Positions 4,624 to 51,537 of a stretch of DNA of 64,000 nucleotides are shown here, piece after piece. Source of the stretch: Candidatus Sungiibacteriota bacterium (GTDB lineage Bacteria; Patescibacteriota; Minisyncoccia; Sungbacterales; HO2-52-23); assembly GCA_016180435.1 (NCBI GenBank), contig JACPBG010000003.1, forward strand, positions 13,791-77,790. Reading direction: 5' to 3'. Position numbers and translations under genes: made by a program. Numbering within the stretch: the stretch's first letter is position 1; every line of letters starts with the position of its first letter. The notes beneath the pieces were generated by a model. The model saw only the letters and a program-made list of their open reading frames with translations. It was not told the origin of the DNA and did no database searches.

Positions 4624-4662
4624 GGCGGACGAAAGTTGCTACAATTCTGAAGTTGTATAATG
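4624..4662 (+). promoter_or_regulatory. Promoter-like element, copy a (GGCGGACGAAAG-TTGCTACAAT-N-TGTATAAT)
   Basis: ttgcta ... tgtataat reads as a -35 plus an extended -10. It is duplicated about 150 bp downstream. Confidence 0.3.
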
Positions 4663-4777
4663 AAAGCATGCGGAGTCCCGCTTCAATTCAAGAATTGATT
4701 TTGTATATAGACGTAGTAAGCCGAAGGCGTTGCCGCGCGATGATCATAATTTTACTGCTGACTTCGCATGGAATTGA

Positions 4778-4818
4778 GGCGGGACGAAAGTTGCTACAAT
4801 GCAGAAGTGGTATAATAG
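4778..4818 (+). promoter_or_regulatory. Promoter-like element, copy b, upstream of recO
   Basis: ggcgggacgaaagttgctacaatgcagaagtggtataatag, about 50 nt upstream of the 4869 start. Confidence 0.35.
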
Positions 4819-4868
4819 TTTCTTATCTTCTCTAATTCGCGTGAATTAGAGAATAGCAGAATACGTAT

Positions 4869-5359: not shown

Positions 5360-7276
5360 ATGTCAAAATTAGAGAATCTTGAAGAAGAACTTTATGGTAA
5401 AGAAGCCGAGGGAAAATTAGCCAAGCGCATGCGCCATAAAGAGGAACTTCCTTTGCCGCATCGCTCCGATCAGACCTCGTGGCAGGAATACGAATCGCCG
5501 CCTCCACCCCAAAATACAAAGCGGCCGCGATTTTTTATTTTTGACTATCGGGCTCTGATTTTGCTTCTGGGGGGATTGGTATTCCTGGCGGTTTTTGCCG
5601 GGGCTATTTTTGTGTATTTTTATTTTCAGACCCAGGGTAAGGAAGCGGAGATTGCAATTTTTTCGCGCGATACCGCAGAATCCGGGGAGAGGGTAACATT
5701 CTCGGTGGTGGTGAAGAATGTTTCGCGATATTCTCTTGAGGACGGGGAGGTGGTGCTAGTTCTTCCTTCCGGCTCGATTCTTATTGAAGAGGGCGAGGAG
5801 CGTTCTGCTCCGTCGCGGCTTGTCAAAAAAATATCTCCGGTCCAGCCGCGTGGCGAAGAAACAATTGAAGTTGCGGCGCGTATTTTTGGGTCGGAGTTTG
5901 AAGAGCGCAAGATTGACGCGTCTTTTCATTATCGGCCGGAGAATCTCCGCGCGCGATTTACCGCGCGCGCCTCCAAGGCGTTTACCATAAACCGTGTACC
6001 CATTGCAATTTCTTGGGAAGTTCCGGAATTGGTTACGCAGAATCAGGAAATGGAACTTCGGGTAGATTATATATCAAACGCGCGCGCGCCTTTTGATGAT
6101 TTATCGTTTCGTATCGAGTATCCGCCCGGGTTTAAATTTATTTCCGCCGATCCCAAGCCGGGTTCCGGAGAGACGATTTGGAGAATCGGCACCCTGGACC
6201 CCGGCGGCGGAGGGAGTATACGCATACGCGGGATTATAACCGGACAGGAAGGCGAGACCAAAGCATTCCGGGGGAGTATCGGATTATATAACTCGGCAAC
6301 CCGTGACTGGAAACCATATGTGGATGCCAGCCAGGATTTGAAGTTTTCAACCGATCCTTTATCGGTCAGGATTTCGCTCGGGCGCGATGTCGAAAATATA
6401 ATTGTACCCGGGGCTCATCCCACATTTTTCGTGTATTATCGGAACAATACGCCGGTTATTTTGCGGAATGTATCCATATTGGTATCTATTGAGGGGGGTA
6501 TAATTTTAAAAGATACGATTTTTGTCAGCCGCGGCGGAGTATTTGATGGAGCGAGGCAGGCAATCATTTGGGGGCCGGGGAATATTCCGGAGCTTCGCGA
6601 AGTTTCGCCGGGCAAAGAGGGAGAATTCTCTTTTTCCGTTCAGACGCGGGCACAGCCCGTGATGCGAAGCGCCACGGATAAGAATCTTTTGGTGAAAGTA
6701 AAGTCACTGGCGCGTCCCGGCGATATCCCGCCGGAACTTGCGGGAACCGATTTGGAGTCGGAACATTCGGTTGAATTTAAGGTATCGTCCAAAGTCATAT
6801 TTTCGGGGAAAAGCGTTTATCGCACCTCCCCTATTAAAAATTTAGGACCCCTGCCGCCTAAAGTCGGCGCAGAAACAACCTATGTAATCGTGTGGGAAGT
6901 TAAGAATTTCACTAATGATTTAAAAAATACCGAAATTAGAGCCACTCTTCCACCGAATATAAAATGGGGGGGAGCAGTTTTCCCGTCCGATGCCAAAATT
7001 ACGTTTAGTGAATCATCGTCCGAGGTGCGGTGGAATATAGAAAATGTTCCGGCCGGTACCGGTGTTATTTCAAAGTCAATGGTGGCCGCGTTTCAGGTCG
7101 TCGTAACGCCTTCGCAGATAGATGCGGGGCGGGCGATTCCTCTGGTTAATGAAGCGCGTTTGACGGCACTTGATAGTTTTACGGGAAGCGGGATGGATGA
7201 GAAAATTGATCCCTTGACTACGGAGACAAGGCAGGATACGTTGACGAATCCTAAAGAATGGCAGGTGGTTCGGTGA
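5360..7276 (+). CDS. Membrane-anchored surface protein with about four DUF11/CARDB-like beta-sandwich repeats
   Basis: Pro-rich N-terminus, a single TM segment (ALILLLGGLVFLAVFAGAIFVYFYF), and repeated GE..tf.v.v.N.s...l.d..v...LP.g motifs. Confidence 0.55.
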   Translation: MSKLENLEEELYGKEAEGKLAKRMRHKEELPLPHRSDQTSWQEYESPPPPQNTKRPRFFIFDYRALILLLGGLVFLAVFAGAIFVYFYFQTQGKEAEIAIFSRDTAESGERVTFSVVVKNVSRYSLEDGEVVLVLPSGSILIEEGEERSAPSRLVKKISPVQPRGEETIEVAARIFGSEFEERKIDASFHYRPENLRARFTARASKAFTINRVPIAISWEVPELVTQNQEMELRVDYISNARAPFDDLSFRIEYPPGFKFISADPKPGSGETIWRIGTLDPGGGGSIRIRGIITGQEGETKAFRGSIGLYNSATRDWKPYVDASQDLKFSTDPLSVRISLGRDVENIIVPGAHPTFFVYYRNNTPVILRNVSILVSIEGGIILKDTIFVSRGGVFDGARQAIIWGPGNIPELREVSPGKEGEFSFSVQTRAQPVMRSATDKNLLVKVKSLARPGDIPPELAGTDLESEHSVEFKVSSKVIFSGKSVYRTSPIKNLGPLPPKVGAETTYVIVWEVKNFTNDLKNTEIRATLPPNIKWGGAVFPSDAKITFSESSSEVRWNIENVPAGTGVISKSMVAAFQVVVTPSQIDAGRAIPLVNEARLTALDSFTGSGMDEKIDPLTTETRQDTLTNPKEWQVVR

Positions 7277-7285
7277 TGCGGTCTT

Positions 7286-7482
7286 GCAATGTTATTTTGA
7301 AACACGGGCGGGCATCCAGCGATGCCCGCCCTAAGCATCCGGCGCGGCGCCGAGCGCTAAATTCTGAAATAGTATTCTTCGAGCTTGTCGAGAAGTCACC
7401 TTATTAAATGTATTTGTGTATTCGATTATTTAGCGCTCGGACCATGCCGCCGCGCCTTCTGATTGTTTTAAAATAACATTGC
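7286..7482. repeat. Palindromic MITE-like structured element, copy 1 (about 197 bp; terminal inverted repeats GCAATGTTATTTTGAAAC / GTTTTAAAATAACATTGC)
   Basis: Outer TIRs; an internal hairpin gggcgggcatccagcgatgcccgccc; a long internal inverted repeat gcatccggcgcggcgccgagcgctaaat / atttagcgctcggaccatgccgccgcgcc. It starts 10 nt after the stop of the upstream gene. Confidence 0.8.
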
Positions 7483-7556
7483 GATACCGCATCGTTCACT
7501 TTTAGAATTTTCTTGATGTAGCGCTATGTGCCGTCGTCACAATAAATTTCTTTATA

Positions 7557-7586
7557 TAAGCCATTTTTACGGCTTGATTTTTTATC
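7557..7586 (+). terminator. Rho-independent terminator-like hairpin (aagccatttttacggctt + T-run)
   Basis: Stem aagcc/ggctt followed by gatttttta, downstream of MITE copy 1. Confidence 0.45.
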
Positions 7587-7664: not shown

Positions 7665-9338
7665 ATGAATGACAAAGAGCAAAATCTAATGGAAAAAATT
7701 GTATCGCTTGCCAAAAGACGGGGGTTTGTGTTTCCGGGTTCGGAAATTTACGGAGGACTTGCCGGAACTTGGGACTATGGGCCTTTGGGCGTGCGTTTGA
7801 AAGAAAATATCAAGCATGAGTGGTGGCGGCACATGCTTCGTGAAGACCGCATTTATCCCTTGGATGCCGCGATTTTGATGAATTCGAAAACTTGGGAGGC
7901 ATCCGGGCACATTGAGCATTTTTCCGACCCCCTAGTTGAGTGTAATAATTGTAATTATAGAGATAGACCAGATCAGTTGGTTGAGAATGAACTTGATTTA
8001 GCAACAGTTAGAAAGGAATTTCTTGTTATTATAGATGATATTGCGGACAAAATAGATTCGGATACGAATAAAGCAAAAGATCTAATGAAATCTGCAAGAA
8101 TTATAATTCAGGACCGCCTAAAAGACAACTCGCTGTCTCCCGAGGAAATATCTGCACTTCAGTCAACAGTTGAAATGATACTTAATCAATCTGAGTATCT
8201 ATTGAAAAAAAGTGGATCTAGTTTGCAAGTTAAAAGCTTTATTATTAAGGAAGTTTCAAATTCTTTAAAATACCATGGAATAGTTTTGCGTAGATATCTT
8301 AATGCTTTTGTGAGGTGTCCAAATTGTGGAGCAAGAAAATGGGGTATACCAAAGCTATTTCAAATGATGTTCAAAACTCATGCCGGACCAGTTGAAAATG
8401 CGTCCACAGTTGTTTATTTGCGTCCGGAAACCGCGCAGGGAATATTCACAAATTTTAAAAATGTGGTGGATTCGTTTCGTCCGGTTTTGCCGTTTGGCAT
8501 TGCGCAAATTGGGAAGGCGTTCAGAAATGAAATCACTCCGCGTAATTTCCTGTTCCGCGCGCGGGAATTTGAACAAATGGAACTTGAATATTTTTGCCAT
8601 CCGGAAAAAGCGGATGAATACTTCACCGATATACGCAATATGCGGATGGAGTGGTTTTTGTCGCTCGGAATCCGGAAAGACAACATACGATTTCGTGATC
8701 ACGCGAAAGACGAACTCGCGCATTATTCCCGTGCTGCCACAGATATTGAATATCGGTTCGGCTTGAATGAGGGCGGATTTTCCGAATTGGAAGGGATTGC
8801 CAATCGCGGAGATTTTGACCTTTCCAACCACGCCAAGCATTCCGGCATTGATTTGAAACTGGAAGGCATAATGCCCCACGTCATCGAGCCGTCGCTTGGG
8901 CTTGACCGTGCGTTTTTGGCGTTTTTGATGGATGCATATTATGAGGAATCCGTTGGAAGTCCGACTTCCAGCGGGAAGTCGGACTTCCCCGGAAAGCGCG
9001 TGGTATTGAAACTTCATCCTCGCCTTGCTCCGCTGAAAGTCGCCGTATTCCCGCTTCTGGCGAACAAACCGCAATTAGTTGAAAAAGCTAGGAGTATTTA
9101 TGTGATGTTGCGGGAGGCCGGAAGCTGGGGGTTGGGGGCCGCGATAGCTTGGGATGATCGTGGAAACATCGGCAAGCGTTATTTCGCGCAGGATGAAATC
9201 GGCACGCCTTGGTGTGTTACCGTAGATTTTCAGACATTGGAAGATGATACCGTGACGGTGCGGGATAGAGATACGGCCAAGCAGGAAAGAATTTCAATCA
9301 GTGAATTGCAAAAATATTTCAGAGAAAAGTTAATTTAA
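7665..9338 (+). CDS. glyQS: Glycyl-tRNA synthetase (alpha2 dimer type)
   Basis: N-terminus MEKIVSLAKRRGFVFPGSEIYGGLAGTWDYGPLG, class II motifs, and the CNNC...CPNCG zinc motif flanking an insertion. Contains an in-frame 34-bp perfect palindrome. Confidence 0.9.
   Translation: MNDKEQNLMEKIVSLAKRRGFVFPGSEIYGGLAGTWDYGPLGVRLKENIKHEWWRHMLREDRIYPLDAAILMNSKTWEASGHIEHFSDPLVECNNCNYRDRPDQLVENELDLATVRKEFLVIIDDIADKIDSDTNKAKDLMKSARIIIQDRLKDNSLSPEEISALQSTVEMILNQSEYLLKKSGSSLQVKSFIIKEVSNSLKYHGIVLRRYLNAFVRCPNCGARKWGIPKLFQMMFKTHAGPVENASTVVYLRPETAQGIFTNFKNVVDSFRPVLPFGIAQIGKAFRNEITPRNFLFRAREFEQMELEYFCHPEKADEYFTDIRNMRMEWFLSLGIRKDNIRFRDHAKDELAHYSRAATDIEYRFGLNEGGFSELEGIANRGDFDLSNHAKHSGIDLKLEGIMPHVIEPSLGLDRAFLAFLMDAYYEESVGSPTSSGKSDFPGKRVVLKLHPRLAPLKVAVFPLLANKPQLVEKARSIYVMLREAGSWGLGAAIAWDDRGNIGKRYFAQDEIGTPWCVTVDFQTLEDDTVTVRDRDTAKQERISISELQKYFREKLI
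8955..8988. repeat. Perfect 15-bp inverted repeat (ggaagtccgacttcc agcg ggaagtcggacttcc) lying in-frame inside glyQS (encodes GSPTSSGKSDFPG)
   Basis: Read directly; each arm is the reverse complement of the other. Confidence 0.85.
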
Positions 9339-9408: not shown

Positions 9409-10689
9409 TTGATATCAATGTTTAAAAAAATAACTCTTGACAATGGACTGCGCATAATTACCGCTCCCATGCAAGGTACTAACACCGTGACCACGTTGGT
9501 GCTTTGCGGCACGGGTTCGGATTATGAGTCGCAGGAAATAAGCGGGATTTCCCATTTTTTGGAGCACATGTTTTTCAAAGGCACTCAAAAACGTCCCCTT
9601 CCGACTGATATTACGCACGAGTTAGATAGCATGGGCTCGATTTCAAATGCTTTTACTTCGCACGAATTAACCGGATATTTCGTTAAAGCCGGGAAAGAAT
9701 ATTTAGATCGATCGTTTGATATTTTGTCGGATATTTATAAGAATTCGCTTTTGAACGAAGAGGAAATCGAAAGAGAAAAACAGGTGGTAGTTGAAGAAAT
9801 GCACAAAGACCGCGATAATCCCATGCTTTATATCTGGTGGGTGTGGGAGAAATTGCTTTACGGCGATCAACCGGCCGGTTGGGACGTGATTGGGACGGAA
9901 GAGGTTATAAGAAAATTAAAGCGCGAGGATTTTGTAAATTATTTTTTCCATCAGTATGTTGCATCCAATACGGCGATTGTGGTTGCGGGGAATTTTGAAG
10001 AAATATCCATGCAGAAGCGTATTGAAGAAATTTTTGGGGACATAAGGCATGATCCGCCGGTGCGCAAAAAAGCCGACTTTCGTGAGGGACAAAAAGATTC
10101 GGCGCTGGATATCCATTATAAAGAAACCGATCAGACTCATATTACTTTGGGGTTTCGGGGTTATGACGCCAATCATCCCCAGCGCTATGCCGCTGAATTG
10201 CTTGCCGCAATTCTGGGTGCGGGCATGTCCTCGCGCATGTTTACCGAAATTCGGGAACGATTAGGGTTGGCATATGCCGTATCTTCTGTTCATGAGTCAT
10301 ATTCAAACCGCGGTTATCTTGTGACTTACGCGGGTGTGGCGCACGAGAATGTGGAAAAAACAATTCGCGCAATTTTAGGAGAGTACGGGCGGCTTTGTGA
10401 AGAAAAAGTCAGCGATAAGGAGTTTAAAAAAGTTAAGGACTATATCCGTGGTACAACCCTGATCGCGCTTGAATCCTCTAACGCCGTGGCAAGTTTTGTG
10501 GGCGGAGAGGAGATGTTGACCGGCAAGCCCCTGACAATTGATGAAGTTTTTGCTAAGATAGACGCAGTAACACCCGATCAAATCTGCGCGATTGCCAAAG
10601 ACATCATGCGCCCGGAGAGGTTAAATCTTGCCATGATCGGGCCGTGGAGGGACAGCGCATCATTTATTAAGTTGCTTCGGGAATTTTAG
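9409..10689 (+). CDS. M16-family zinc peptidase (insulinase/pitrilysin-like)
   Basis: Inverted zincin motif HFLEHMFFKG (HxxEH), downstream E, and typical M16 length and organisation. Confidence 0.8.
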   Translation: MISMFKKITLDNGLRIITAPMQGTNTVTTLVLCGTGSDYESQEISGISHFLEHMFFKGTQKRPLPTDITHELDSMGSISNAFTSHELTGYFVKAGKEYLDRSFDILSDIYKNSLLNEEEIEREKQVVVEEMHKDRDNPMLYIWWVWEKLLYGDQPAGWDVIGTEEVIRKLKREDFVNYFFHQYVASNTAIVVAGNFEEISMQKRIEEIFGDIRHDPPVRKKADFREGQKDSALDIHYKETDQTHITLGFRGYDANHPQRYAAELLAAILGAGMSSRMFTEIRERLGLAYAVSSVHESYSNRGYLVTYAGVAHENVEKTIRAILGEYGRLCEEKVSDKEFKKVKDYIRGTTLIALESSNAVASFVGGEEMLTGKPLTIDEVFAKIDAVTPDQICAIAKDIMRPERLNLAMIGPWRDSASFIKLLREF

Positions 10690-10701: not shown

Positions 10702-11745
10702 ATGCCAAATAAAAATTTACAATCCATGCATATTTCTACCGGAACGATAATCCGCCTCTTTTTGATATTTTTTGGAATTATTTTAATTTATATCATCCGC
10801 GATATATTAACCTCGCTACTTTTTGCCGTGATTATCGCATCGGCCCTGGAGCCGTCAATTGAATGGTTGAAATCATACAAAGTTCCGCGCATTGCCGGAG
10901 TGGTGTTGATTTATGTTGCTATTGGCGCCATGCTTTTCTTTTCTCTTTATCTTGTTTTTCCGTTATTTTTTGATGAGTTCAAGGCGATTTCTTCGACATA
11001 TCCGTCTTTGCAAGACCGTTTGATTTCTGAACTTCAGCGCGTTGATATTTTGCCTTTTGGAGAATATTTACGCGGCAATGTAGAAGAGGTTATCCAAATA
11101 CCCGCGGGTTTTTTCGGGCAATTGAGCGGGGGCGTAATAAATTTCGCTTCAGCCGTATTTGGCGGGGTATTCTCTTTTTTTCTTATCATAATTTTTTCTT
11201 TTTATCTGGCGACGCAGGAAAAAGGAATTGAGAGTTTTTTGCGTCTGATCGCGCCGGTTGAATACGAGCCGTATTTAATAGATTTGTGGCATCGGTCGCA
11301 AAGAAAATTGGGGCGCTGGCTAAGGGCGCAGATGCTTCTGGGCGCGATTGTCGGTGTTTTAATATTTTTTGGGCTTACTATTCTGGGAGTCGAGCATGCC
11401 ATGTTTTTTGCGATGCTGGCAGCGCTATTTGAGGTTATTCCGGTGGTTGGGCCGATTTTGGCTGCGGTTCCTGCGGTTCTTGTATCGGTTTTTGTATCAC
11501 CCATGTTTGCGATATGGGTTGTTGTACTATACATCGCGGTTCAACAATTGGAGTCGCATGTGATTGTGCCTGTTGTTATGCGTACCACTATTGGTTTAAG
11601 TCCGTTGATCGTGGTGCTGGCTTTATTGATTGGCGCGAAATTGGGCGGGATTTTCGGGATTTTGCTTGCGGTGCCTTTGACCGCGATTGGGGCGGAGTTG
11701 ATTAATGATTGGGATAAAAAAAAGAGGGCGCTAATACCGGAGTAG
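10702..11745 (+). CDS. AI-2E family transporter (PerM/YhhT-like, UPF0118)
   Basis: Polytopic membrane protein with the AI-2E-typical topology and conserved C-terminal region (AVPLTAIG). Confidence 0.65.
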   Translation: MPNKNLQSMHISTGTIIRLFLIFFGIILIYIIRDILTSLLFAVIIASALEPSIEWLKSYKVPRIAGVVLIYVAIGAMLFFSLYLVFPLFFDEFKAISSTYPSLQDRLISELQRVDILPFGEYLRGNVEEVIQIPAGFFGQLSGGVINFASAVFGGVFSFFLIIIFSFYLATQEKGIESFLRLIAPVEYEPYLIDLWHRSQRKLGRWLRAQMLLGAIVGVLIFFGLTILGVEHAMFFAMLAALFEVIPVVGPILAAVPAVLVSVFVSPMFAIWVVVLYIAVQQLESHVIVPVVMRTTIGLSPLIVVLALLIGAKLGGIFGILLAVPLTAIGAELINDWDKKKRALIPE

Positions 11746-11766
11746 GGGCGGTATTCCTCGGTAATA

Positions 11767-11950
11767 TGATTTTGAAACACATGCGGCCGTCCAGCGACGG
11801 CCGCATTAAGCATCCGGCGCGCGCCGAGCACTTAATTTATCAAAAATAGTTCCCGAGCTTGTCGAGGGACTACCTTTAGTGAAGTCAATACCGCAATCGT
11901 GGGTTGAGTGCTCGGACCATGCCGCGCGCCTTCTGATTGTTTCAAAATCA
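11767..11950. repeat. Palindromic MITE-like structured element, copy 2 (about 184 bp), homologous to 7286..7482
   Basis: TIRs tgattttgaaaca / tgtttcaaaatca; hairpin tgcggccgtccagcgacggccgca; internal IR ...ccgagcactta / ...gagtgctcgg. The stems differ from copy 1 by compensatory changes. Confidence 0.8.
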
Positions 11951-12004
11951 CATCACCTCGACCGCCCCACTCTGATATTTTATTAAAAGAAGATTTGCTA
12001 AATG

Positions 12005-12040
12005 TAGCTCAACGGAAACGTTGAGCTATCGATTTTGTTT
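12005..12040 (+). terminator. Rho-independent terminator (tagctcaacg-GAAA-cgttgagcta + T-run)
   Basis: Perfect 10-bp stem with a GNRA loop, followed by tcgattttgttt. Confidence 0.55.
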
Positions 12041-20400: not shown

Positions 20401-21121
20401 TTTGATAAAAGACGGAACGAAGATGTCAAAGTCCAGGGGGAATGTGGTCAATCCGGATGAGTATATTAGAGCGTATGGCGCGGATGCTCTGCGTATGTAT
20501 TTGATGTTTTTGGGGCCGTTTGAGCAGGGCGGGGATTTTCGGGATGACGGGATCAGGGGAATAACACGGTTTTTGGAGAGAGCATACAAACTAATTTCCA
20601 ATTTCCAAAATCCAATTTCCAAACAAATTCCAAATTCAAAATCACAAATTCAAAAAATATTACACCAGACAATTAAGAAAGTAACGGAAGATATTGAGAA
20701 CCTGCAATACAATACGGCGATTTCGGCTTTAATGATACTTTTGAATAAGTTTGAAGAAAATCCGTCCGCAGTTACTAAAGAACACGTTTCAATATTTTTG
20801 CGATTGTTGGCTCCGGTTGCGCCCTTCATAACGGAGGAATTGTGGAGTATGTTTCCTACAAACTACAAACTACAAGCTACAAGCGTACATAAAAATAAGT
20901 GGCCGGAATATGACCCGAAATTGATTCAAGAAGACACGTTTGAGCTGGTGGTCCAGATAAACGGCAAAGTGCGGGACAAATTTGAGGCTCCGATTGATGT
21001 CTCTGAAGATAATGCAACCCGTTTGACTTTGGGGCGGGAGAGGGTTAAGAGTATAGTTGGAACCTTAAAACCGCGTAGGATTATTTTTGTCCCGAAGCGG
21101 TTGATAAATATCGTGATTTAG
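17498..21121 (+). CDS. leuS: Leucyl-tRNA synthetase carrying two extra inserted domains in one continuous ORF: an alpha/beta serine hydrolase (about 18329-18830) and a Nudix-like domain (about 19290-19720)
   Basis: LeuRS motifs: PYPSAEGLHVGN (HIGH-type), TTRPDTLFGATYLV, AVPAHDERDFEFA (editing Asp), NSGEFNGMD, YRLRDWLISRQRYWGPPIP and KMSKSRGNVVNP. The insert FIHGYKGD...THSLGG (GxSxG) resembles a YdeN/RBBP9-type hydrolase. The insert GGIEKGQTAEQAGVAEILEETGY is a Nudix-box-like sequence in which E is replaced by Q and R by A. At least six in-frame repeat insertions are present. Confidence 0.9.
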   Translation: MRYFPHKIEKKWQKIWLKMEIYEPDIKKTKKPFYNLMMFPYPSAEGLHVGNMYAFTGADIYGRFMRMRGRDVFEPIGLDGFGIHSENFAMKIGRHPADQAKISEKNFYRQLEALGNGFAWCERLETYNPEYYKWTQWIFVQMFKRGLAYRKKQAVNWCPNCKTVLADEQVIQKSEIRNPKSETNSKFEIPAGGEARSGRQNSKQKITIGVCERCDTPVIKKELEQWFFKITDYAERLLGNLAKLDWSERVKIAQKNWIGKSEGALIKFPISNFQFPIKDLDFVFIHGYKGDSRDIFWPWFRKEIERRGAKVFAPDLPNSDAPNINEQVQYVLKQHSFSEKTVIVTHSLGGVVAMKLLPLLHDKIERLLLVAPPLRTEFLDGKKRPALEDACDWKFNFNEIKKHARNISVLADTEDHVVSLDQLVEIAGQLNARLRKTVASAPHFREIVEPEIVNELFPEIEIFTTRPDTLFGATYLVLSPEYEEISNFQFPISNRGEVDEYIKNTKAKTEEERISEGREKTGVELKGIKVINPVNGEEIPVWVADYVLGGVGMGAIMAVPAHDERDFEFAKKHDLPIKTVVESFYIQKEEPGVYRENESIVPRDGIITIIKHWSEDKYIGLKWKKVAWGTFLTGGIEKGQTAEQAGVAEILEETGYLHPKFIRELGITHGLFYHVPKKENRLVHAHILYFELQDGARTEISEKEQEIHDIKWLTLKELKSFLTPATHTYALDLFREGIKVYTGGGILCNSGEFNGMDSEKAKLEITKFVCGERKIQYRLRDWLISRQRYWGPPIPMIFCESCKKSLENSKFSKGELENPGWTAVPEKDLPVKLPYVKNFRPTGTDKSPLATVKKFYKVRCPKCKSWARRETDVSDTFLDSAWYYLRYPSVKMQNSKIKMQNENSKSKNIEIPWNSEITKKWTPVNMYIGGAEHSVLHLLYSRFLAMAFKDWGLTHFEEPFTKFRAHGLLIKDGTKMSKSRGNVVNPDEYIRAYGADALRMYLMFLGPFEQGGDFRDDGIRGITRFLERAYKLISNFQNPISKQIPNSKSQIQKILHQTIKKVTEDIENLQYNTAISALMILLNKFEENPSAVTKEHVSIFLRLLAPVAPFITEELWSMFPTNYKLQATSVHKNKWPEYDPKLIQEDTFELVVQINGKVRDKFEAPIDVSEDNATRLTLGRERVKSIVGTLKPRRIIFVPKRLINIVI
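18013..18064. repeat. In-frame GAAATCC/GAAATTC heptad repeat in leuS (IQKSEIRNPKSETNSKFEIP)
   Basis: gaaatccgaaatccgaaatccgaaatccgaaacaaattcgaaattcgaaattcc. Confidence 0.8.
18065..18098. repeat. GGCGAGGCTCGC palindromic element copy in leuS (cccgccggaggcgaggctcgctcggggcggcaaaa; AGGEARSGRQ)
   Basis: About 90% identical to the metG copy at 14598-14633. Confidence 0.85.
18297..18328. repeat. In-frame ATTTCCA repeat x4 in leuS (FPISNFQFPIKD)
   Basis: aatttccaatttccaatttccaatttccaatt. Confidence 0.8.
18949..18980. repeat. In-frame ATTTCCA repeat x4 in leuS (ISNFQFPISN), preceded by an 11-bp inverted repeat cctcgtactct/agagtacgagg (18922-18948)
   Basis: atttccaatttccaatttccaatttccaatcg. Confidence 0.8.
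20168..20222. repeat. In-frame AAAATGCAAAAT/TTCAAAA repeat in leuS (KMQNSKIKMQNENSKSKN)
   Basis: aaaatgcaaaattcaaaaatcaaaatgcaaaatgaaaattcaaaatctaaaaa. Confidence 0.75.
20594..20655. repeat. In-frame TTTCCAA/ATTCAAA repeat in leuS (ISNFQNPISKQIPNSKSQIQKI)
   Basis: atttccaatttccaaaatccaatttccaaacaaattccaaattcaaaatcacaaattcaaaaa. Confidence 0.8.
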
Positions 21122-21570: not shown

Positions 21571-21595
21571 CTTCTGGGGTATTTTTTATATCCGA

Positions 21596-21700
21596 ACCCC
21601 GTTAAAGAAAAACCAACCGGACATTTTTTAATTTAGAGTTAACAAAAAATACTAAACATTCTTGCAGTAAAAACGTTTTCTGTTTTTCTCTAACGGGGTG
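21596..21700. repeat. CCCCGTTA(A/G)AG-TIR MITE-like element (aaccccgttaaag ... ctctaacggggtg)
   Basis: Same TIR family as 37109-37313 and the in-frame copy in mfd at 61976-62078. Confidence 0.6.
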
Positions 21701-21785: not shown

Positions 21786-21990
21786 TATGGGCGGTTGAGG
21801 ATGTTTGATTTTAGACAATGGGAGGATTAGTTTGTTAGGTTCTCCGCCGCAGGCGGATTCAATAAGAAAATTCTCCAAGCGAGTCACAGGCGGAATTTAG
21901 CATTTTGCTTTTAAGGCAATGGGAGGATAAGTTTGCATGGTTTCTGCCGCAGGCGGATACAATACGAAAACCCATAAACGAGCTAATCAT
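21786..21990. repeat. Family-B structured repeat (two tandem units containing ttttagacaatgggagg ... ccgccgcaggcgg ... gagtcacag)
   Basis: Shares the motifs gggcggttgaggatgtttgattttagacaatgggagg with 41380-41420 and 47375-47395. Confidence 0.7.
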
Positions 21991-34206: not shown

Positions 34207-34884
34207 ATGCTTTTATCTCGCCATGCCATTTTGCGTCATTTCAAAGAGGGGAATATTGTAATTGACCCCTTTGACGATCGAAAATTAAAAACCACCAGCT
34301 ACGATGTTGCGTTGGGTGAGTGGTTTTGGCGCGAAGGACATCCGGAGAGTCGCGCAACACTTCATAATGTATATGACGAGGAATCAACTAAGCGGGTGTG
34401 GCAGGGGCCTTATGGTGCGGAAAGTGCGAGGGCGGTAAGCGAGCGGCTTGGGCTTAATCTTAAAAATATTAAACCCGAAGATAAAATTATTCTTTTACGT
34501 CCGGGCGAGACGGTCTTGGCGCACACTGATGAATTTATAGGCGGACGCAATAAAGTGGTTTCCAAAATGTATGCGCGCTCGTCTCTTGGCAGAAACTTTG
34601 TGGAAGTTTGCAAAGACGCGGGCTGGGGGGACATCGGATATTTCAACCGTTGGACCATGGAGGTGACAAATAATTCGCAGTATTTTACGATCCCGTTGGT
34701 GGTGGGGCGCCGCATCGGGCAGATGGTGTTTTATGAGGTAGAGCCGGTGGCAAGCGGAGCGGATTATGTGGCGGAAGCGGGAAAGTATCAACTATCGCAG
34801 GATATTGAGGAGGTCAAAAAAACCTGGAAGCCGGAGATGATGATACCGAGCATGCATTTAGATTGGGAGGTACGCTCCGTATAG
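34207..34884 (+). CDS. dCTP deaminase / dUTPase-fold protein (Dcd-like) with a C-terminal extension
   Basis: N-terminus ILRHFKEGNIVIDPF...TSYDVALG and core LRPGETVLAHTDEFIGG...SSLGR...GWGD.G matching Dcd family blocks. Confidence 0.65.
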   Translation: MLLSRHAILRHFKEGNIVIDPFDDRKLKTTSYDVALGEWFWREGHPESRATLHNVYDEESTKRVWQGPYGAESARAVSERLGLNLKNIKPEDKIILLRPGETVLAHTDEFIGGRNKVVSKMYARSSLGRNFVEVCKDAGWGDIGYFNRWTMEVTNNSQYFTIPLVVGRRIGQMVFYEVEPVASGADYVAEAGKYQLSQDIEEVKKTWKPEMMIPSMHLDWEVRSV

Positions 34885-35147
34885 CGGTTATCGGCAATTC
34901 TTTTTACAGACACGCAAAAATTTCCCTGCGAGAAATTTTTCTCAGGATCCGGCATTGCTCTCCCGCCTTTAGCGGGATCCATGCCCGCAATGTCTCATCA
35001 TGGTCTGTAAAAAGAATTGCCGATAACCGCATTTATTTTGCTATAAGGTTTTCGTAATGTAACCGGCATTTGCCGGTTTTTTTGATTGACATAAAAAAGC
35101 AAGCGTGTTACTAATGGATATAGATCTTTAATGTTGAGGATGAATCT

Positions 35148-35695: not shown

Positions 35696-35953
35696 ATGAA
35701 ACGCATCCCAAAATTACCAACTATTGATGTTAAAAAATACGGAGGGCGGCAGGTTGCGATTGTGGATGGAAAGATCATCGCATCTGGACGTACTTTACGT
35801 CAGGTTATTTTGCGGGCGCGAAAAATAATTCCTTCGCGGCCACTGCATGAGATTAGAGTTTTTTCCGTACCAAGATCTCTGTCGGTGATTTATTATGCCC
35901 AATATTCAGATTTTTCCATATGGTATCACGCTTCGGGAGGGGGGTGCAGTTGA
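35696..35953 (+). CDS. DUF5678-like small protein (copy 1)
   Basis: MKRIPKLPTIDVKKYGGRQVAIVDGKIIASGRTLRQVILRARK; a paralogue lies at 46530. It overlaps the downstream aspartic protease by 59 nt. Confidence 0.5.
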   Translation: MKRIPKLPTIDVKKYGGRQVAIVDGKIIASGRTLRQVILRARKIIPSRPLHEIRVFSVPRSLSVIYYAQYSDFSIWYHASGGGCS

Positions 35954-37064: not shown

Positions 37065-37108
37065 AACCCCGTCAAGGGGTTATTTTATTTAAACGCGCGG
37101 ATGTTTTA

Positions 37109-37313
37109 CCCCGTTAGAACGCCGTCGACTCCTGTCGGCGGTAATGGCAGAGATAAATGATGGAAGTGTAATGCTCCCATCTACGGGTCGCTCGCCCCGT
37201 TAGAGATGCGGCGCGACAAGACCCCGGCGGTACTAGTGAAAAATGTAATTTTTTTCTTAAATGGATTCAACTCTATAAATCTCTAACGGGGCGAAGCGCC
37301 CGTTCTAACGGGG
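37109..37313. mobile_element. Nested CCCCGTTAGAG-TIR MITE-like element (outer TIR ccccgttagaacg / cgttctaacgggg; inner TIR ccccgttagagat / atctctaacgggg)
   Basis: Two concentric pairs of perfect 13-bp inverted repeats in the hyp-glyA intergenic region. Confidence 0.7.
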
Positions 37314-37351
37314 TTTTACAATAAACAATAGATGTTTTAGAATTTAAGAAT

Positions 37352-41164: not shown

Positions 41165-41401
41165 AATATAAAGGAAGCCCTCGCGCTTCCTATTTTATTT
41201 GATTTTATGCAAATTTTATGCTATTTAAAGGTAGTGTAATGTATCAGGCGTGAAGCGCTACACTAAGAAAATTTTAAGTGAGTCAAAACGGTTGAGGCGT
41301 TTTGTTTTCGAAGCGATGGGGGGCGTTAAATCATGTTTTCCGCCTTAGGCGGACACAATAAGAAAATATCTAAGCGGAGTCATGGGCGGTTGAGGATGTT
41401 T

Positions 41402-41509
41402 GATTTTAGACAATGGGAGGTCCGATTTGCTTGGTTCCGCCGAAGGCGGAAAATCGGACTGACCTTTAGTGAGGCGGCCGCTGGGAGCCGCCGAATCGTG
41501 TCTAAAATC
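41402..41509. repeat. Family-B structured element, compact copy (closing stem gattttagaca/tgtctaaaatc with nested stems), 33 nt upstream of folD
   Basis: An 11-bp closing helix; nested helices gtccgattt/aaatcggac, ccgcc/ggcgg and gcggcc...gccgcc. The homologue at 47375-47614 has compensatory changes (ggcggc/gccgcc versus ggccgc/gcggcc). Confidence 0.7.
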
Positions 41510-41541
41510 AAATATCCGAAAACCGCCATACGAAGCGATCT

Positions 41542-46028: not shown

Positions 46029-46161
46029 ATTTGATGGCGGAATTTTATCCCCACACCAAATTTGGTGTGGGGGTTTGTTTGGATGAGGAACTTAGGGGAA
46101 TACTTGACAAATTGATCAGAGAGGTGTAGATTTATTGTGGTTCATTGCTGGGAGTTTATTT

Positions 46162-46529: not shown

Positions 46530-46751
46530 ATGAAGCGGTTTACAACCCCTATCATTGATGTAAAAAAATATGGCGGAAAACAGGTGGCGATTGTGAAAGG
46601 AAAAATTGTGGCTTCCGGTATCACCACCCGGGAGGTGTTGGAGAATGCCAGAAAAAAACTTCCGCATGCGACTTGGCGCGATATTCTCTTGGTGAGCGTT
46701 CCTATAATTTTATCCCCACACCTTTCCAGAGTATTTCATAGGAAGGTGTGA
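46530..46751 (+). CDS. DUF5678-like small protein (copy 2, orphan)
   Basis: MKRFTTPIIDVKKYGGKQVAIVKGKIVASGITTREVLENARKKLP, a paralogue of 35696..35953. Confidence 0.5.
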   Translation: MKRFTTPIIDVKKYGGKQVAIVKGKIVASGITTREVLENARKKLPHATWRDILLVSVPIILSPHLSRVFHRKV

Positions 46752-46885
46752 GGATTTATTAATTTGGGTGTAAGCGCGGAAAAATCATGACTGAGTTTTA
46801 TTCGGATGAGGAACTAAGAGGCATACTTGACAAATTAATAAGGGAGGTGTAATCTGTGTGTAGCTATTTGGAAAGGTGAATCGCA

Positions 46886-47248: not shown

Positions 47249-47374
47249 CAGTTCGGTCCTCGGGCCGATTTTTTATAGTTTAAATAATAGCCAGGCTCAA
47301 AGCCCTACCTGTCGGTAGGTAGGGCTACCATAAGCAAACCTTTTAAGCGAGCGTTGCGGCCGAAGGTATTTTCT

Positions 47375-47614
47375 ATTTTAGACAATGGGAGGATAAAATT
47401 GCTTGCCCCGCACCAAATTTTGACTGCCGCTTTCGTTTCCATCCAAGCAAATATGAACATCTGTTAAGAAATACAGAATATGTCCCGCCAGCTTATTCGA
47501 GGTGGCACGGAAACGGTCAAAATTTTGATGACGGGGCTTGGCTTGTGCGAAGCGCAAAAATTTGTCCGACCCTTAGCGAGGCCGCCGCAGGAGCGGCCGA
47601 GACGTGTCTAAAAT
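47375..47614. repeat. Family-B structured element, long copy, downstream of relA
   Basis: attttagaca...tgtctaaaat closing stem; shares the gaggcCgccgc...gcggCcga stem (compensated relative to the 41-kb copy) and the gagtcacag motif. Confidence 0.65.
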
Positions 47615-47644
47615 AGGAAATACCCGAGAAGCCGCATCAGCGAG

Positions 47645-49425: not shown

Positions 49426-51537
49426 TTACGCGGATTTTTCTTTTGTTTCTAGCTCTGATAGAGGATTTGTCCACGATGCAAAATCGCAGTTGGGGTAGCG
49501 CGAGCATCCGAAAAACACTTTGCCTCGGCGCGTGCGCCGCATGATCACGTCTCCCCCGCCCGCCGGGGCGGGCGAGGCTCGCCCGTCTTTGATGGGCGGC
49601 TCTGCGCATTTCGGACACTTCATGCCAATGGTTTGGGGCTCTTGTTTCAGGGTCTTGGTTGTTTTGCAATCGGGGAAGCCGGAGCAGGCCAAAAATTTTC
49701 CAAATCTTCCAAGTTTAACAATCATGGGTTTTCCGCATTTTTCGCAAATTTCGTCCGTGGTTTCGGCAATTTCATGTTTTTTCACCTCTTCGTATTTTGA
49801 TTCAAGATGCTTGGCGAATGGCTCGTAAAATTCGCGGATAACCGGCTGCCACTCCATTTTTCCTTCGGCTATCTCGTCCAGTTCCTCCTCCATTTTAGCA
49901 GTAAATTGTATGTCCACGATTTCCGGAAAGTGTTCGACCAGCATATCGTTTACCAGAAATCCGACCTCGGTGGGTTTTAGATACCTCCGTTCATGGCGTT
50001 CAACGTATTTTCGGGCAAGAATTGTGGAAATAATAGGAGCATAAGTGGATGGCCGGCCAATGCCATTTTTTTCAAGAGTTTTTACCAAGGTTGCTTCTGA
50101 AAAACGCGGCGGCGGCTGGGTAAAATGCTGAAGGGGTTTTAACTCCCGGCATTCAAGTCGATCGTTTTTGGCAAGTTCCGGAAGTTCGGCTTCGGAAAAT
50201 TTCATGGGGTAAATTTTGAGGAACCCGTCGAATTTCATAACTTGTCCCGTTGCCCGAAAAGTATAGCTGGTAGCTGGTAGCTGGTAGCTGGTAGCTACGG
50301 CAATATCTATGCTGGTGGCATCAAATATTGCCGCTGGCATTTGTGATGCGATAAATCTTCGCCAGATCATGTCATAGAGCCGGAATTGGCGCTGGTCCAG
50401 GAACTTTTTAATGGACTCCGGAGTGCGTCGAGGATCGGTTGGCCGAATGGCTTCATGGGCCTCTTGCGCTCCCCTGGAAGTTGTTTTGAACCGGCGGGGT
50501 GAGGCCGGGGCATAGCGATCTCCCAACTCTTTTTTCAAGAATGCCGCGGCATCGCGCAGTGAGTCCTCGGAAAGATTAAGCGAGTCGGTCCGCATGTATG
50601 TGATAAGTCCGGTGGATCCCTCGTCTCCGAGTTCAATTCCCTCATAAAGCTGCTGGGCGAACATCATGGTTTGTTTGGAAGAAAATCCGAGGCGGCGGAA
50701 CGCATCTTGTTGAATAGTTGAGGTCATGTATGGAGGAAGAGGATTTTTGGATACTGCTTTTTTTTCCACTTCATTTATCGTCCACTCCGCATTTTCCAGA
50801 TTTTTAACAATTTTTTCTGACTCTTCCGCGCTTGCGATATCAAATTTATCCAGCGTCTTATCCCCGATTTTTACTAAATTCGCTTCAAACTGCTGTTCGT
50901 GCTGTTGGTTTTCTGTTCGCGTTGTTTGTGTTTTGAGGAGCGAAGCGACGATAGACCAATATTCTTTGGTCTTAAAATTTTGAATTTCTCGTTCCCGCTC
51001 CACAATCAGGCGCACCGCAACGGACTGCACTCGTCCGGCGGATAGGCCGCGATACATTTTTTTCCACAAAAATGGCGATAGTTTATATCCTACCAGCCGG
51101 TCAAGGATCCGGCGCGCCTGCTGGGCATCAACCTGTTTTAGGTCAATATCGCGCGGATTTTTTAAAGCGTCATTTATGGCGCGTTCAGTTATTTCGTGAA
51201 ATACGATCCTTTCGATGTTATCGCCCGGCCGATCTTCGAGTCCGAGTGCGCTGATAAGATGCCAGGCAATGGCCTCTCCCTCGCGGTCTTCGTCGGTCGC
51301 GAGTATTATTTTATCCGCGGACTTGGCTTCTTTTTTTAATTGGTTTACGTTTTTCCGGCTTTTTAAGGGGATTATATAGCGCGGTTCGAAGTTTTTTTCT
51401 ACATCAATTCCAAGATCGGATTTGGGCAAATCGCGCACGTGGCCATAGCTTGATTCCACAATAAAATCGCTCCCTAAGAATCGGGAGATGGTTCGGGCTT
51501 TGGTGGGACTCTCAACTATTACTAAACTTTTTGCCAT
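49426..51537 (-). CDS. topA: DNA topoisomerase I
   Basis: Toprim N-terminus MAKSLVIVESPTKARTISRFLG, catalytic Tyr region, and C-terminal CxxC zinc ribbons. Has in-frame inserts (the GGCGAGGCTCGCC element at 49555-49600 and the CTACCAG x4 repeat at 50264-50296). Confidence 0.95.
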   Translation of the reverse strand: MAKSLVIVESPTKARTISRFLGSDFIVESSYGHVRDLPKSDLGIDVEKNFEPRYIIPLKSRKNVNQLKKEAKSADKIILATDEDREGEAIAWHLISALGLEDRPGDNIERIVFHEITERAINDALKNPRDIDLKQVDAQQARRILDRLVGYKLSPFLWKKMYRGLSAGRVQSVAVRLIVEREREIQNFKTKEYWSIVASLLKTQTTRTENQQHEQQFEANLVKIGDKTLDKFDIASAEESEKIVKNLENAEWTINEVEKKAVSKNPLPPYMTSTIQQDAFRRLGFSSKQTMMFAQQLYEGIELGDEGSTGLITYMRTDSLNLSEDSLRDAAAFLKKELGDRYAPASPRRFKTTSRGAQEAHEAIRPTDPRRTPESIKKFLDQRQFRLYDMIWRRFIASQMPAAIFDATSIDIAVATSYQLPATSYTFRATGQVMKFDGFLKIYPMKFSEAELPELAKNDRLECRELKPLQHFTQPPPRFSEATLVKTLEKNGIGRPSTYAPIISTILARKYVERHERRYLKPTEVGFLVNDMLVEHFPEIVDIQFTAKMEEELDEIAEGKMEWQPVIREFYEPFAKHLESKYEEVKKHEIAETTDEICEKCGKPMIVKLGRFGKFLACSGFPDCKTTKTLKQEPQTIGMKCPKCAEPPIKDGRASPAPAGGGDVIMRRTRRGKVFFGCSRYPNCDFASWTNPLSELETKEKSA
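49555..49600. repeat. GGCGAGGCTCGCC palindromic element copy in-frame in topA (encodes GRASPAPAGGG on the minus strand)
   Basis: cccgcccgccggggcgggcgaggctcgcccgtctttgatgggcggc. Confidence 0.8.
50264..50296. repeat. In-frame (AGCTGGT)x4 heptad repeat in topA (ATSYQLPATSYQ on the minus strand)
   Basis: agctggtagctggtagctggtagctggtagcta. Confidence 0.8.

Follow-up and report, generated by a model that had tools for sequence, protein, structure and literature searches.

The DNA analysed here, a 64,000-nucleotide stretch from a Candidatus Sungiibacteriota bacterium (the window), carries a previously undescribed family of folded palindromic repeats, which belongs to one small clade of ultra-small Sungbacteria-like bacteria. 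The elements measure 115-250 nt, and the same three-way junction can be folded from either strand. We demonstrate the family itself, its fold, the paired changes in its helices, its position, its patchy distribution and its mosaicism. By analogy with the ERIC, Correia and REP repeats, we read it as a clade-restricted intergenic palindromic repeat whose transcript may act as a 3′ structural cap or as an RNase III site, an explanation to which we give slightly less than an even chance. The roles proposed in the initial annotation of this DNA, namely a MITE, a 3′-UTR stabiliser or a processing site, are still the leading candidates.

Fold and members of the family in the window

A structural seed built by hand gave a covariance model (R1), and the matches of R1 gave a second one (R2). 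The two structured copies first reported are both present on the + strand, at 7275-7493 (copy 1; 85.6 bits with R1 and 94.7 bits with R2) and, with its extended basal helix, at 11741-11972 (copy 2; 85.6 and 94.5 bits). They are 84% identical over ~230 columns and share five collinear direct-repeat blocks (D1-D3, D5). Copy 1 folds with −109.7 kcal/mol (z = −11.8) and copy 2 with −90.4 kcal/mol (z = −9.2), and in neither case was any of 200 dinucleotide shuffles as good; the reverse strands fold nearly equally well (z = −9.9 and −8.0, respectively).

The element had been described as fully palindromic, but all full members fold as an asymmetric three-way junction and not as a simple palindrome. 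The basal helix, P1, is near-perfect, has 30-50 bp, and normally begins at a stop codon or at most ~12 nt from it. On the 5′ side follows P2, a hairpin of 9-11 bp with the family loop UCC..GCG, and then P3, a long arm that has a conserved 7-nt bulge, CCAWGC, on its 3′ strand only. The junction strands J2/3 and J3/1 form a 2-bp helix in full members, while nested inserts are optional and carried by some copies. The arms have the consensus ..GCGGUUUUCGGNUAUUUGAUUUUAGACAC and its complement, with the inner arm sequence ..UUUUAGACAC / ..UGUCUAAAA.. kept between copies, and the unpaired motifs UCC..GCG, UAAG, CCAWGC and AUUG are conserved across sub-types and genomes. By inspection, neither the bulge nor the P2 loop has a consistent covarying partner for a specific tertiary pairing, and the arms hold no IHF, attC or dif-like consensus.

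Three sub-types can be told apart by their unpaired strands: W (J2/3 UAAGCAUYC, bulge ACCAUGC, J3/1 UYCUGAU), S (J2/3 UAAGGGKC, bulge RCCAAGC, J3/1 UCCCAU) and V3 (J2/3 UCAGGAUCC, bulge UCCAUGC, J3/1 UCAUCAU). Copies 1 and 2 are both of type W, with the J2/3 strand UAAGCAUCC, the J3/1 strand UUCUGAU, the bulge ACCAUGC, a P3a of 8-9 bp and a P3b of 12-13 bp that carries an insert of ~65 nt. In copy 1, the P1 arms (5′ 7275-7304, 3′ 7464-7493) form an inverted repeat of 30 nt with 90% complementarity, followed inwards by P2 (7306-7331), J2/3 (7332-7340), P3a (7341-7349 with 7448-7456), P3b (7350-7362 with 7428-7440), the nested insert (7363-7427), the bulge (7441-7447) and J3/1 (7457-7463). Copy 2 has an outer helix (11741-11753 with 11961-11972) around a P1 core of 20 nt with 90% complementarity (11760-11779 with 11938-11957), and then P2 (11781-11806), J2/3 (11807-11815), P3a (11816-11823 with 11923-11930), P3b (11824-11835 with 11904-11915), the insert (11836-11903), the bulge (11916-11922) and J3/1 (11931-11937).

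The P2 loop, UCCAGCGA, is unchanged between the two copies, in agreement with the initial annotation, and the compensating changes quoted there are real: P2 reads GGGCGGGCA/UGCCCGCCC in copy 1 and AUGCGGCCG/CGGCCGCAU in copy 2, and P3b reads GAGCGCUAAAU/AUUUAGCGCUC and GAGCACUUAA/UUGAGUGCUC, respectively. P3a shows a paired one-base indel (GGCGCGGCG/CGCCGCGCC versus GGCGCGCG/CGCGCGCC). The ~65 nt P3b insert of both copies contains the hairpin CGAGCUUGUCGAG, which is also found, in flipped orientation, as the P3b of an S-type copy in relative L038, and in relative L007 (6190-6250) the insert stands as a separate piece beside an element, not inside it. As independent repeats the hairpin motifs of the insert were discarded, each being present once in the window.

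The family had been reported as two copies, while the window holds at least five full members and at least three truncated 3′ halves, and the family occurs at about one copy per 13 kb; R2 matches at 7291-7477 (+), 11766-11951 (+), 34899-35015 (+), 41399-41512 (−) and 47371-47618 (−). The V3 copy at 34884-35030 (+; 66 bits with R1, 92 bits with R2) has no insert and shows the three unpaired strands given above for its sub-type; its helix begins at the G of the TAG stop codon of a dCTP-deaminase gene (Pfam). An S-type copy at 41382-41529 (−; 94.5 bits with R1, 101.9 bits with R2), with J2/3 UAAAGGUCA, bulge ACCAAGC and J3/1 CUCCCAU, is antisense to its + strand neighbours, with its 5′ flank directly next to the ATG of folD (41542). 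The other S-type copy, at 47355-47636 (−; 64.5 bits over 47371-47618 with R2), begins 9-12 nt past the TGA of a − strand relA/spoT-like gene and carries within its bulge a palindromic insert of ~150 nt, with the direct repeat CAAG on both sides. Among the truncated units, the one at 41289-41354 (−) comes after the 41.4 kb copy, across a conserved linker, and retains the 3′ half only (hairpin, degenerate bulge, CCCAUCG and 3′ arm). Two further 3′-half units stand in tandem at 21789-21958 (−) with a period of ~100 nt (U1, 21900-21958; U2, 21789-21858), each with the hairpin, ACCAUGC or ACCUAAC, UCCCAUUG and the 3′ arm; the 3′-arm pattern matches at 21808 and 21909, and the 5′-arm pattern has no match in this region, the 5′ half being missing from both units.

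Other repeated sequences were observed in the same DNA. The ~150 nt palindromic module CCCCGUNAUCAA...GGAUGGAAACGAAAGC...CGGGG (47395-47530, − strand, in the window and 9485-9630 in relative L003) interrupts the 7-nt bulge of S-type elements from two genomes and is bordered by the direct repeat CAAG or AAG. Its CCCCGT termini resemble those of a second, unrelated palindromic family with the termini CCCCGTTAGA.../...TCTAACGGGG, which occurs at 37100-37320 and 21590-21700; at 37.1-37.3 kb one copy of this family is nested in another, the outer one apparently lying within a TTTTA direct repeat, as in a MITE. Small paralogous ORFs (..IDVKKYGG.QVAIV.GKI..) at 35698-35890 and 46531-46700, together with the duplicated flanking blocks TTTTATCCCCACACC.. 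and GGATGAGGAACT.AG.GG.ATACTTGACAAATT.AT.AG.GAGGTGTA at 46029-46130 and 46700-46860, suggest a duplicated small-gene cassette. Two copies of a ~45 nt block, GGCGG(G)ACGAAAGTTGCTACAAT.C.GAAGT.GTATAAT, at 4650-4830 look like a duplicated TTGCTA-N17-TATAAT promoter, and tandem heptamers occur within long ORFs (GTAGCTG four times at 50270-50300, + strand; GTAGYTT three times at 20855-20880, − strand).

Paired changes and distribution among relatives

The initial annotation had suggested a covariance-model search, a comparison with Rfam and a look for covariation in additional copies, and all three turned out favourably. The search with R2 gave 13 matches (E-values between 1e-22 and 1e-12). Five are those listed above for the window, and the others come from loci in five or six genomes related to it (two each in L033, L003 and L038, one each in L007 and L017); there were none in ~105 kb of slightly more distant relatives (L006, L010, L029-L032, L036 and L037). 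No element matches Rfam 15: at the gathering threshold the window yielded one tRNA only, and permissive scans of W- and S-type copies gave chance-level matches (E ≥ 0.3), far under the cut-offs. Known RNA families (hammerhead, twister, twister-sister, pistol, hatchet, HDV-like, 6S, T-box and riboswitches) were thus rejected as identities.

For the analysis of covariation, 10 copies were aligned by hand with N padding, because MAFFT aligned the full elements poorly with respect to structure. Overall, 93-96% of cells are paired and 35-41 pairs have changed on both sides. Standard pairs fill 95.5% of the cells in the hand alignment and 93.3% in the covariance-model alignment (A7), figures that favour the structure, since the hand alignment was fitted to it and A7 also leans to the model; the values fall to 61% and 60% after shuffling, and to 37-47% and 38-46% when partners are slid by 1-3 columns. 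Both sides have changed in 41/46 pairs by hand and in 35/40 in A7, and one-sided (wobble) changes are rare. Even the 2-bp junction helix covaries by sub-type (W CA/UG, S GG/CC, V3 GA/UC). The shared architecture is not in doubt, despite the structure-fitted alignments.

The compensation between copies is real; its use in the initial annotation as evidence of selection on structure, possibly that of an RNA, is not supported in that form. RNAs selected on one strand usually have many G.U pairs and very few A.C, while in the 13-copy alignment G.U occupies 13 and A.C 16 of 499 pair cells (binomial p = 0.71 against 50:50), and in the hand alignment 9 and 11. With G.U no commoner than A.C, complementarity is kept equally on both strands, as in a DNA palindrome, and compensation is no safe ground for inferring selection on RNA structure. 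The same pattern can arise without RNA selection, through template switching during the repair of quasi-palindromes or through arm-to-arm conversion. Signs of events at the DNA level are the exchange of P3b with its insert between otherwise identical orthologous copies, the occurrence of the hairpin CCCGAGCUUGUCGAGGG in both orientations, the presence of different sub-types at one and the same site in relatives, and the antisense copies.

GlyRS, FolD and YchF homologues place this DNA in a Sungbacteria-like Parcubacteria lineage, and sub-types W and S occur together in at least three genomes. Synteny around both initially flagged copies (RecO, DUF11 protein, GlyRS, M16 peptidase, AI-2E transporter, MetRS) is conserved in relatives, and in relatives with 77-82% GlyRS identity these two intergenic sites hold elements of the same architecture whose sequence differs strongly. 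Syntenic sites are occupied in the window, L007, L017 and L003; in L010 both spacers are empty of the element and contain the terminator only, and L031 and L032 have hardly any spacer. This pattern of occupancy fits a single old gain and repeated insertion equally well. The glycyl-tRNA synthetase of the window (7665-9338, 557 aa) has itself an insertion of ~120 aa that is absent from most homologues (416-450 aa), the best local alignment covering only ~61% of the query.

Copy 2 and its ortholog in L017 are identical at 66/66 nt across P1, P2, J2/3 and P3a (5′ half). Between the same two genomes the neighbouring AI-2E gene agrees at only 59% of its third codon positions, and the spacer past the element cannot be aligned. 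This points to purifying selection on the primary sequence or to repeated or recent overwriting from a conserved source.

The family fragments assemblies at its copies: short-read contigs of the organism of the window (L014-L016) end within repeat copies, and in a relative's scaffold (L006, 5585-5683) an N gap lies exactly at the expected element site after the AI-2E gene. In L033, a dCTP-deaminase gene is bracketed by inverted elements at 6015-6126 (−) and 6847-6968 (+), whose 5′ ends point toward the start and stop codons in a layout like that of a composite transposon.

Outside these genomes the family was sought by pattern. The GGACCATGCC-N5-10-CCTTCTGATTG pattern was found in 185,579 species genomes at one further locus only, L001; the S-type pattern had two chance matches in metagenomes, neither fitting the covariance model; a viral scan gave eight matches, all in one phage coding sequence and none fitting the model; and blastn against 50,697 phage records returned nothing. 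A full-text search of the literature found no paper on such repeats in CPR bacteria. The contig of L001 and L038 (CAZPDF010000005.1) is labelled 'Candidatus Saccharibacteria', probably in error, as its YchF shares 72-77% identity with proteins assigned to Sungbacteria or Sungiibacteriota. Transfer across phyla was dismissed on the same grounds, since a YchF closest to Sungbacteria places L001 and L038 in the same clade.

Position between stop codon and terminator

At six of the eight independent sites the element lies in sense orientation directly past a stop codon and ahead of a terminator, following genes for the DUF11 protein, the AI-2E transporter, dCTP deaminase, RelA/SpoT, YchF and FtsK. 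Since these flanking genes are functionally unrelated, the element is not a gene-specific regulator. The remaining two sites are antisense to the flanking genes, and both adjoin a start codon via the junction CATAGATCGCT. The placement in 3′ UTRs proposed in the initial annotation is thus a rule, not a law.

The elements had been said to start 10-20 nt after the stop codon. When 50 nt of flank were added to the fold, however, the basal helix extended to 30-50 bp and reached the upstream stop codon in both flagged copies: in copy 1 it begins at 7275, within the TGA stop (7274-7276) of the ORF 5360..7276, and in copy 2 it takes in the TAG with which the AI-2E transporter gene ends (11743-11745). 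In several relatives the final codons of the gene recur, inverted, in the 3′ flank, and the outer helices at the AI-2E and DUF11-protein genes consist of such inverted copies of host coding ends.

The intrinsic terminators that had been noted downstream were recovered by a terminator scan as hairpins with T tracts at 7557-7576 and 12004-12029. After copy 1, a conserved 3′ linker (..CACUUUUAGAAUUUUCUUGAUGUAGC..) and the terminator with its T tract occupy 7494-7586 (+), and after copy 2 they occupy 11973-12039 (+), the latter terminator being kept in L017 and L006. According to the flank alignment, the ~60 nt from the 3′ arm to the terminator hairpin are homologous among copies, and the repeated unit therefore spans from stop codon to terminator, in effect a portable 3′-end module. 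The element is not itself an intrinsic terminator, since the basal helix has no T tract after it and the terminators are separate structures 60-90 nt farther on.

No reverse transcriptase, transposase or recombinase adjoins any copy in the flanking-gene tables examined, and no transposase was found in the loci of relatives or among the ten flanking proteins of the window that were scanned. No target-site duplication was seen where the helices end, either in the copies at 7275, 34884 and 41382 or in the relatives' copies. Two other identities were considered and set aside. The layout is superficially similar to that of a retron ncRNA (msr-msd), with end pairing and two hairpins, but no reverse-transcriptase gene is adjacent (the neighbours checked are the DUF11 protein, GlyRS, AI-2E transporter, dCTP deaminase, FolD, RelA/SpoT, YchF and FtsK). 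On the opposite strand the bulge reads ATG or TTG, ~8-10 nt past GGGAGG or AGAAGG; a small protein encoded there was rejected by hand translation and the ORF list, as the frames have 11-12 codons or are not conserved between copies.

Competing readings and significance

In the reading that we favour, a repeat of the ERIC, Correia or REP kind, the element would have been multiplied and reshuffled at the DNA level by duplication, recombination and conversion between copies, and its Watson-Crick palindrome would be kept up by processes acting on DNA hairpins. At the RNA level it would form part of the 3′ UTR, since the terminator lies beyond it and RNA polymerase has to transcribe through it to get there, and its very stable structure would block 3′-to-5′ exonucleases and/or offer RNase III a long duplex. 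Several observations count against this reading. The 66/66 identity with L017 exceeds what a passive stable hairpin needs, the conserved unpaired motifs fit a specific partner better than a generic block to exonucleases, two sites are antisense, and no target duplication, transposase or other partner gene was seen.

By analogy, the element appears to work most like the ERIC, Correia and REP repeats; it is a member of none of those families. ERIC/IRU sequences, imperfect palindromes more than 100 nt long, are found in transcribed intergenic regions and usually on the 3′ side of genes. They have size variants made by internal insertions, a copy number that varies highly between related species and an unclear mode of spread, and the hairpin in their transcripts is believed to influence how stable the mRNA is. 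The present element shares the palindromic form, the length of 100-plus nt, the position 3′ of genes and the size variants from internal inserts, but it has no sequence relationship to ERIC and another host phylum, it folds as an asymmetric three-way junction whose junction, bulge and loop motifs are conserved, it comprises three sub-types, and its basal helix reaches the stop codon and even draws on inverted copies of coding ends. Correia elements (CREE/NEMIS) of Neisseria, of ~100-160 bp, are abundant and co-transcribed, with long terminal inverted repeats and long and short forms; their long duplex RNA is an RNase III substrate, their fold is a simple hairpin, and they possess an IHF site and a TA target duplication. 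Size, long terminal inverted repeats and the presence of long and short forms are common to both, whereas in the present element no target duplication was found and the internal helices covary. REP/BIME/REPIN units are single hairpins of 20-40 nt that contain a conserved GTAG, are associated with a RAYT transposase and are believed to make the upstream mRNA more stable. Like them, our element is palindromic, lies between stop codon and terminator and forms clusters with partial units; unlike them, it is much larger (115-250 nt) and branched. REP-like GTAG and hairpin terminators were also considered as a second family, and were dropped because a GTAG-plus-hairpin scan of the window gave only scattered unrelated cases. 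With integron attC sites the element shares a conserved fold of variable sequence, the location 3′ of genes, bulged bases and variable terminal structures. In contrast to attC, whose folding is strand-specific, its arms have by inspection no RYYYAAC/GTTRRRY core sites, no integrase was seen, and its neighbours are syntenic housekeeping genes, not cassettes.

A true MITE, that is, a non-autonomous DNA transposon that is moved in trans by a transposase encoded elsewhere in the genome and whose fold arises incidentally from its terminal inverted repeats, seems to us rather unlikely. It would explain a small, multicopy element without an ORF, with terminal inverted arms of 30-50 bp and an inner part conserved between copies, as well as the patchy, clade-restricted distribution with empty syntenic sites, the two orientations and the truncated and nested copies; the second palindromic family CCCCGTTAGA.. 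of the same genome, with its apparent TTTTA target duplications, and the CAAG repeat around the 150-nt insert of the 47.5 kb copy point the same way. However, the full copies inspected have no target-site duplication, no transposase was found in the flanking genes scanned or in the relatives' loci, and a DDE-type MITE does not need the covarying P2, P3a, P3b and 2-bp junction helix. Moreover, the copies of one genome have diverged into three sub-types, with no recent burst, and cut-and-paste insertion would not make arms that run into host coding sequence. We consider it highly improbable that the element is a DNA-level site, forming a cruciform or hairpin for a nucleoid, topoisomerase or recombinase protein or bounding a segment invertible between its inverted arms. 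The purely Watson-Crick, strand-symmetric pairing, the long, near-perfect arms, the one flipped hairpin and the two copies inverted relative to the rest would all suit such a site, but no recombinase or invertase gene is adjacent, no site was seen in both orientations (the relatives examined have no element upstream of folD), and the binding of duplex DNA does not need a multi-branch asymmetric fold with covarying internal helices.

That the element is a new class of functional structured RNA, acting in cis at mRNA 3′ ends, with its junction catalytic or bound by a specific protein or RNA, is in our judgement unlikely. Such an RNA could, for example, couple translation termination at the stop codon with the processing or the stability of the mRNA, or give rise to 3′-UTR-derived small RNAs with CU-rich (UCCC/CCUCC) seeds. 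The conservation of unpaired junction, bulge and loop nucleotides over three sub-types and several genomes argues for it, as do the covariation of all helices, the coexistence of the W and S motif sets in at least three genomes, a conservation between orthologs far above neutral (66/66 nt versus 59% of third codon positions), the onset of the basal helix at the stop codon in most sense copies and the 6 to 2 bias for the sense orientation. Against it stand the missing strand asymmetry of G.U and A.C, with G.U in 13/499 cells being atypical of selection on one strand, the close relatives that do without the family, the antisense, partial tandem and decayed copies, the lack of a common theme among the neighbouring genes, and the lack of a match to any known ribozyme or riboswitch model. 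In a more specific version, which we regard as decidedly unlikely, a functional RNA of the Sungbacteria clade would have its basal helix opened by the terminating ribosome, and its junction, bulge and loop would recruit a factor or be catalytic, thereby coupling translation to mRNA processing or stability, or freeing sibling small RNAs.

What is new in the repeat of ERIC, Correia or REP kind proposed here is the phylum and the conserved branched fold, while the kind of element is only modestly novel. The small, streamlined genomes of CPR/Patescibacteria are believed to be poor in repetitive DNA, and to our knowledge almost nothing is known of their non-coding elements. In this setting, the family fills the gap between stop codon and terminator of housekeeping genes with a branched fold that survives complete sequence turnover, and, because assemblies break exactly at its copies, it is a practical nuisance for the assembly of MAGs. 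It also provides a clean natural data set on the general question of where the 'compensatory' changes of palindromic repeats originate, in selection on the RNA or in repair of the palindrome at the DNA level. Should the RNA prove functional, CPR bacteria would have one of their first described lineage-specific RNA classes.
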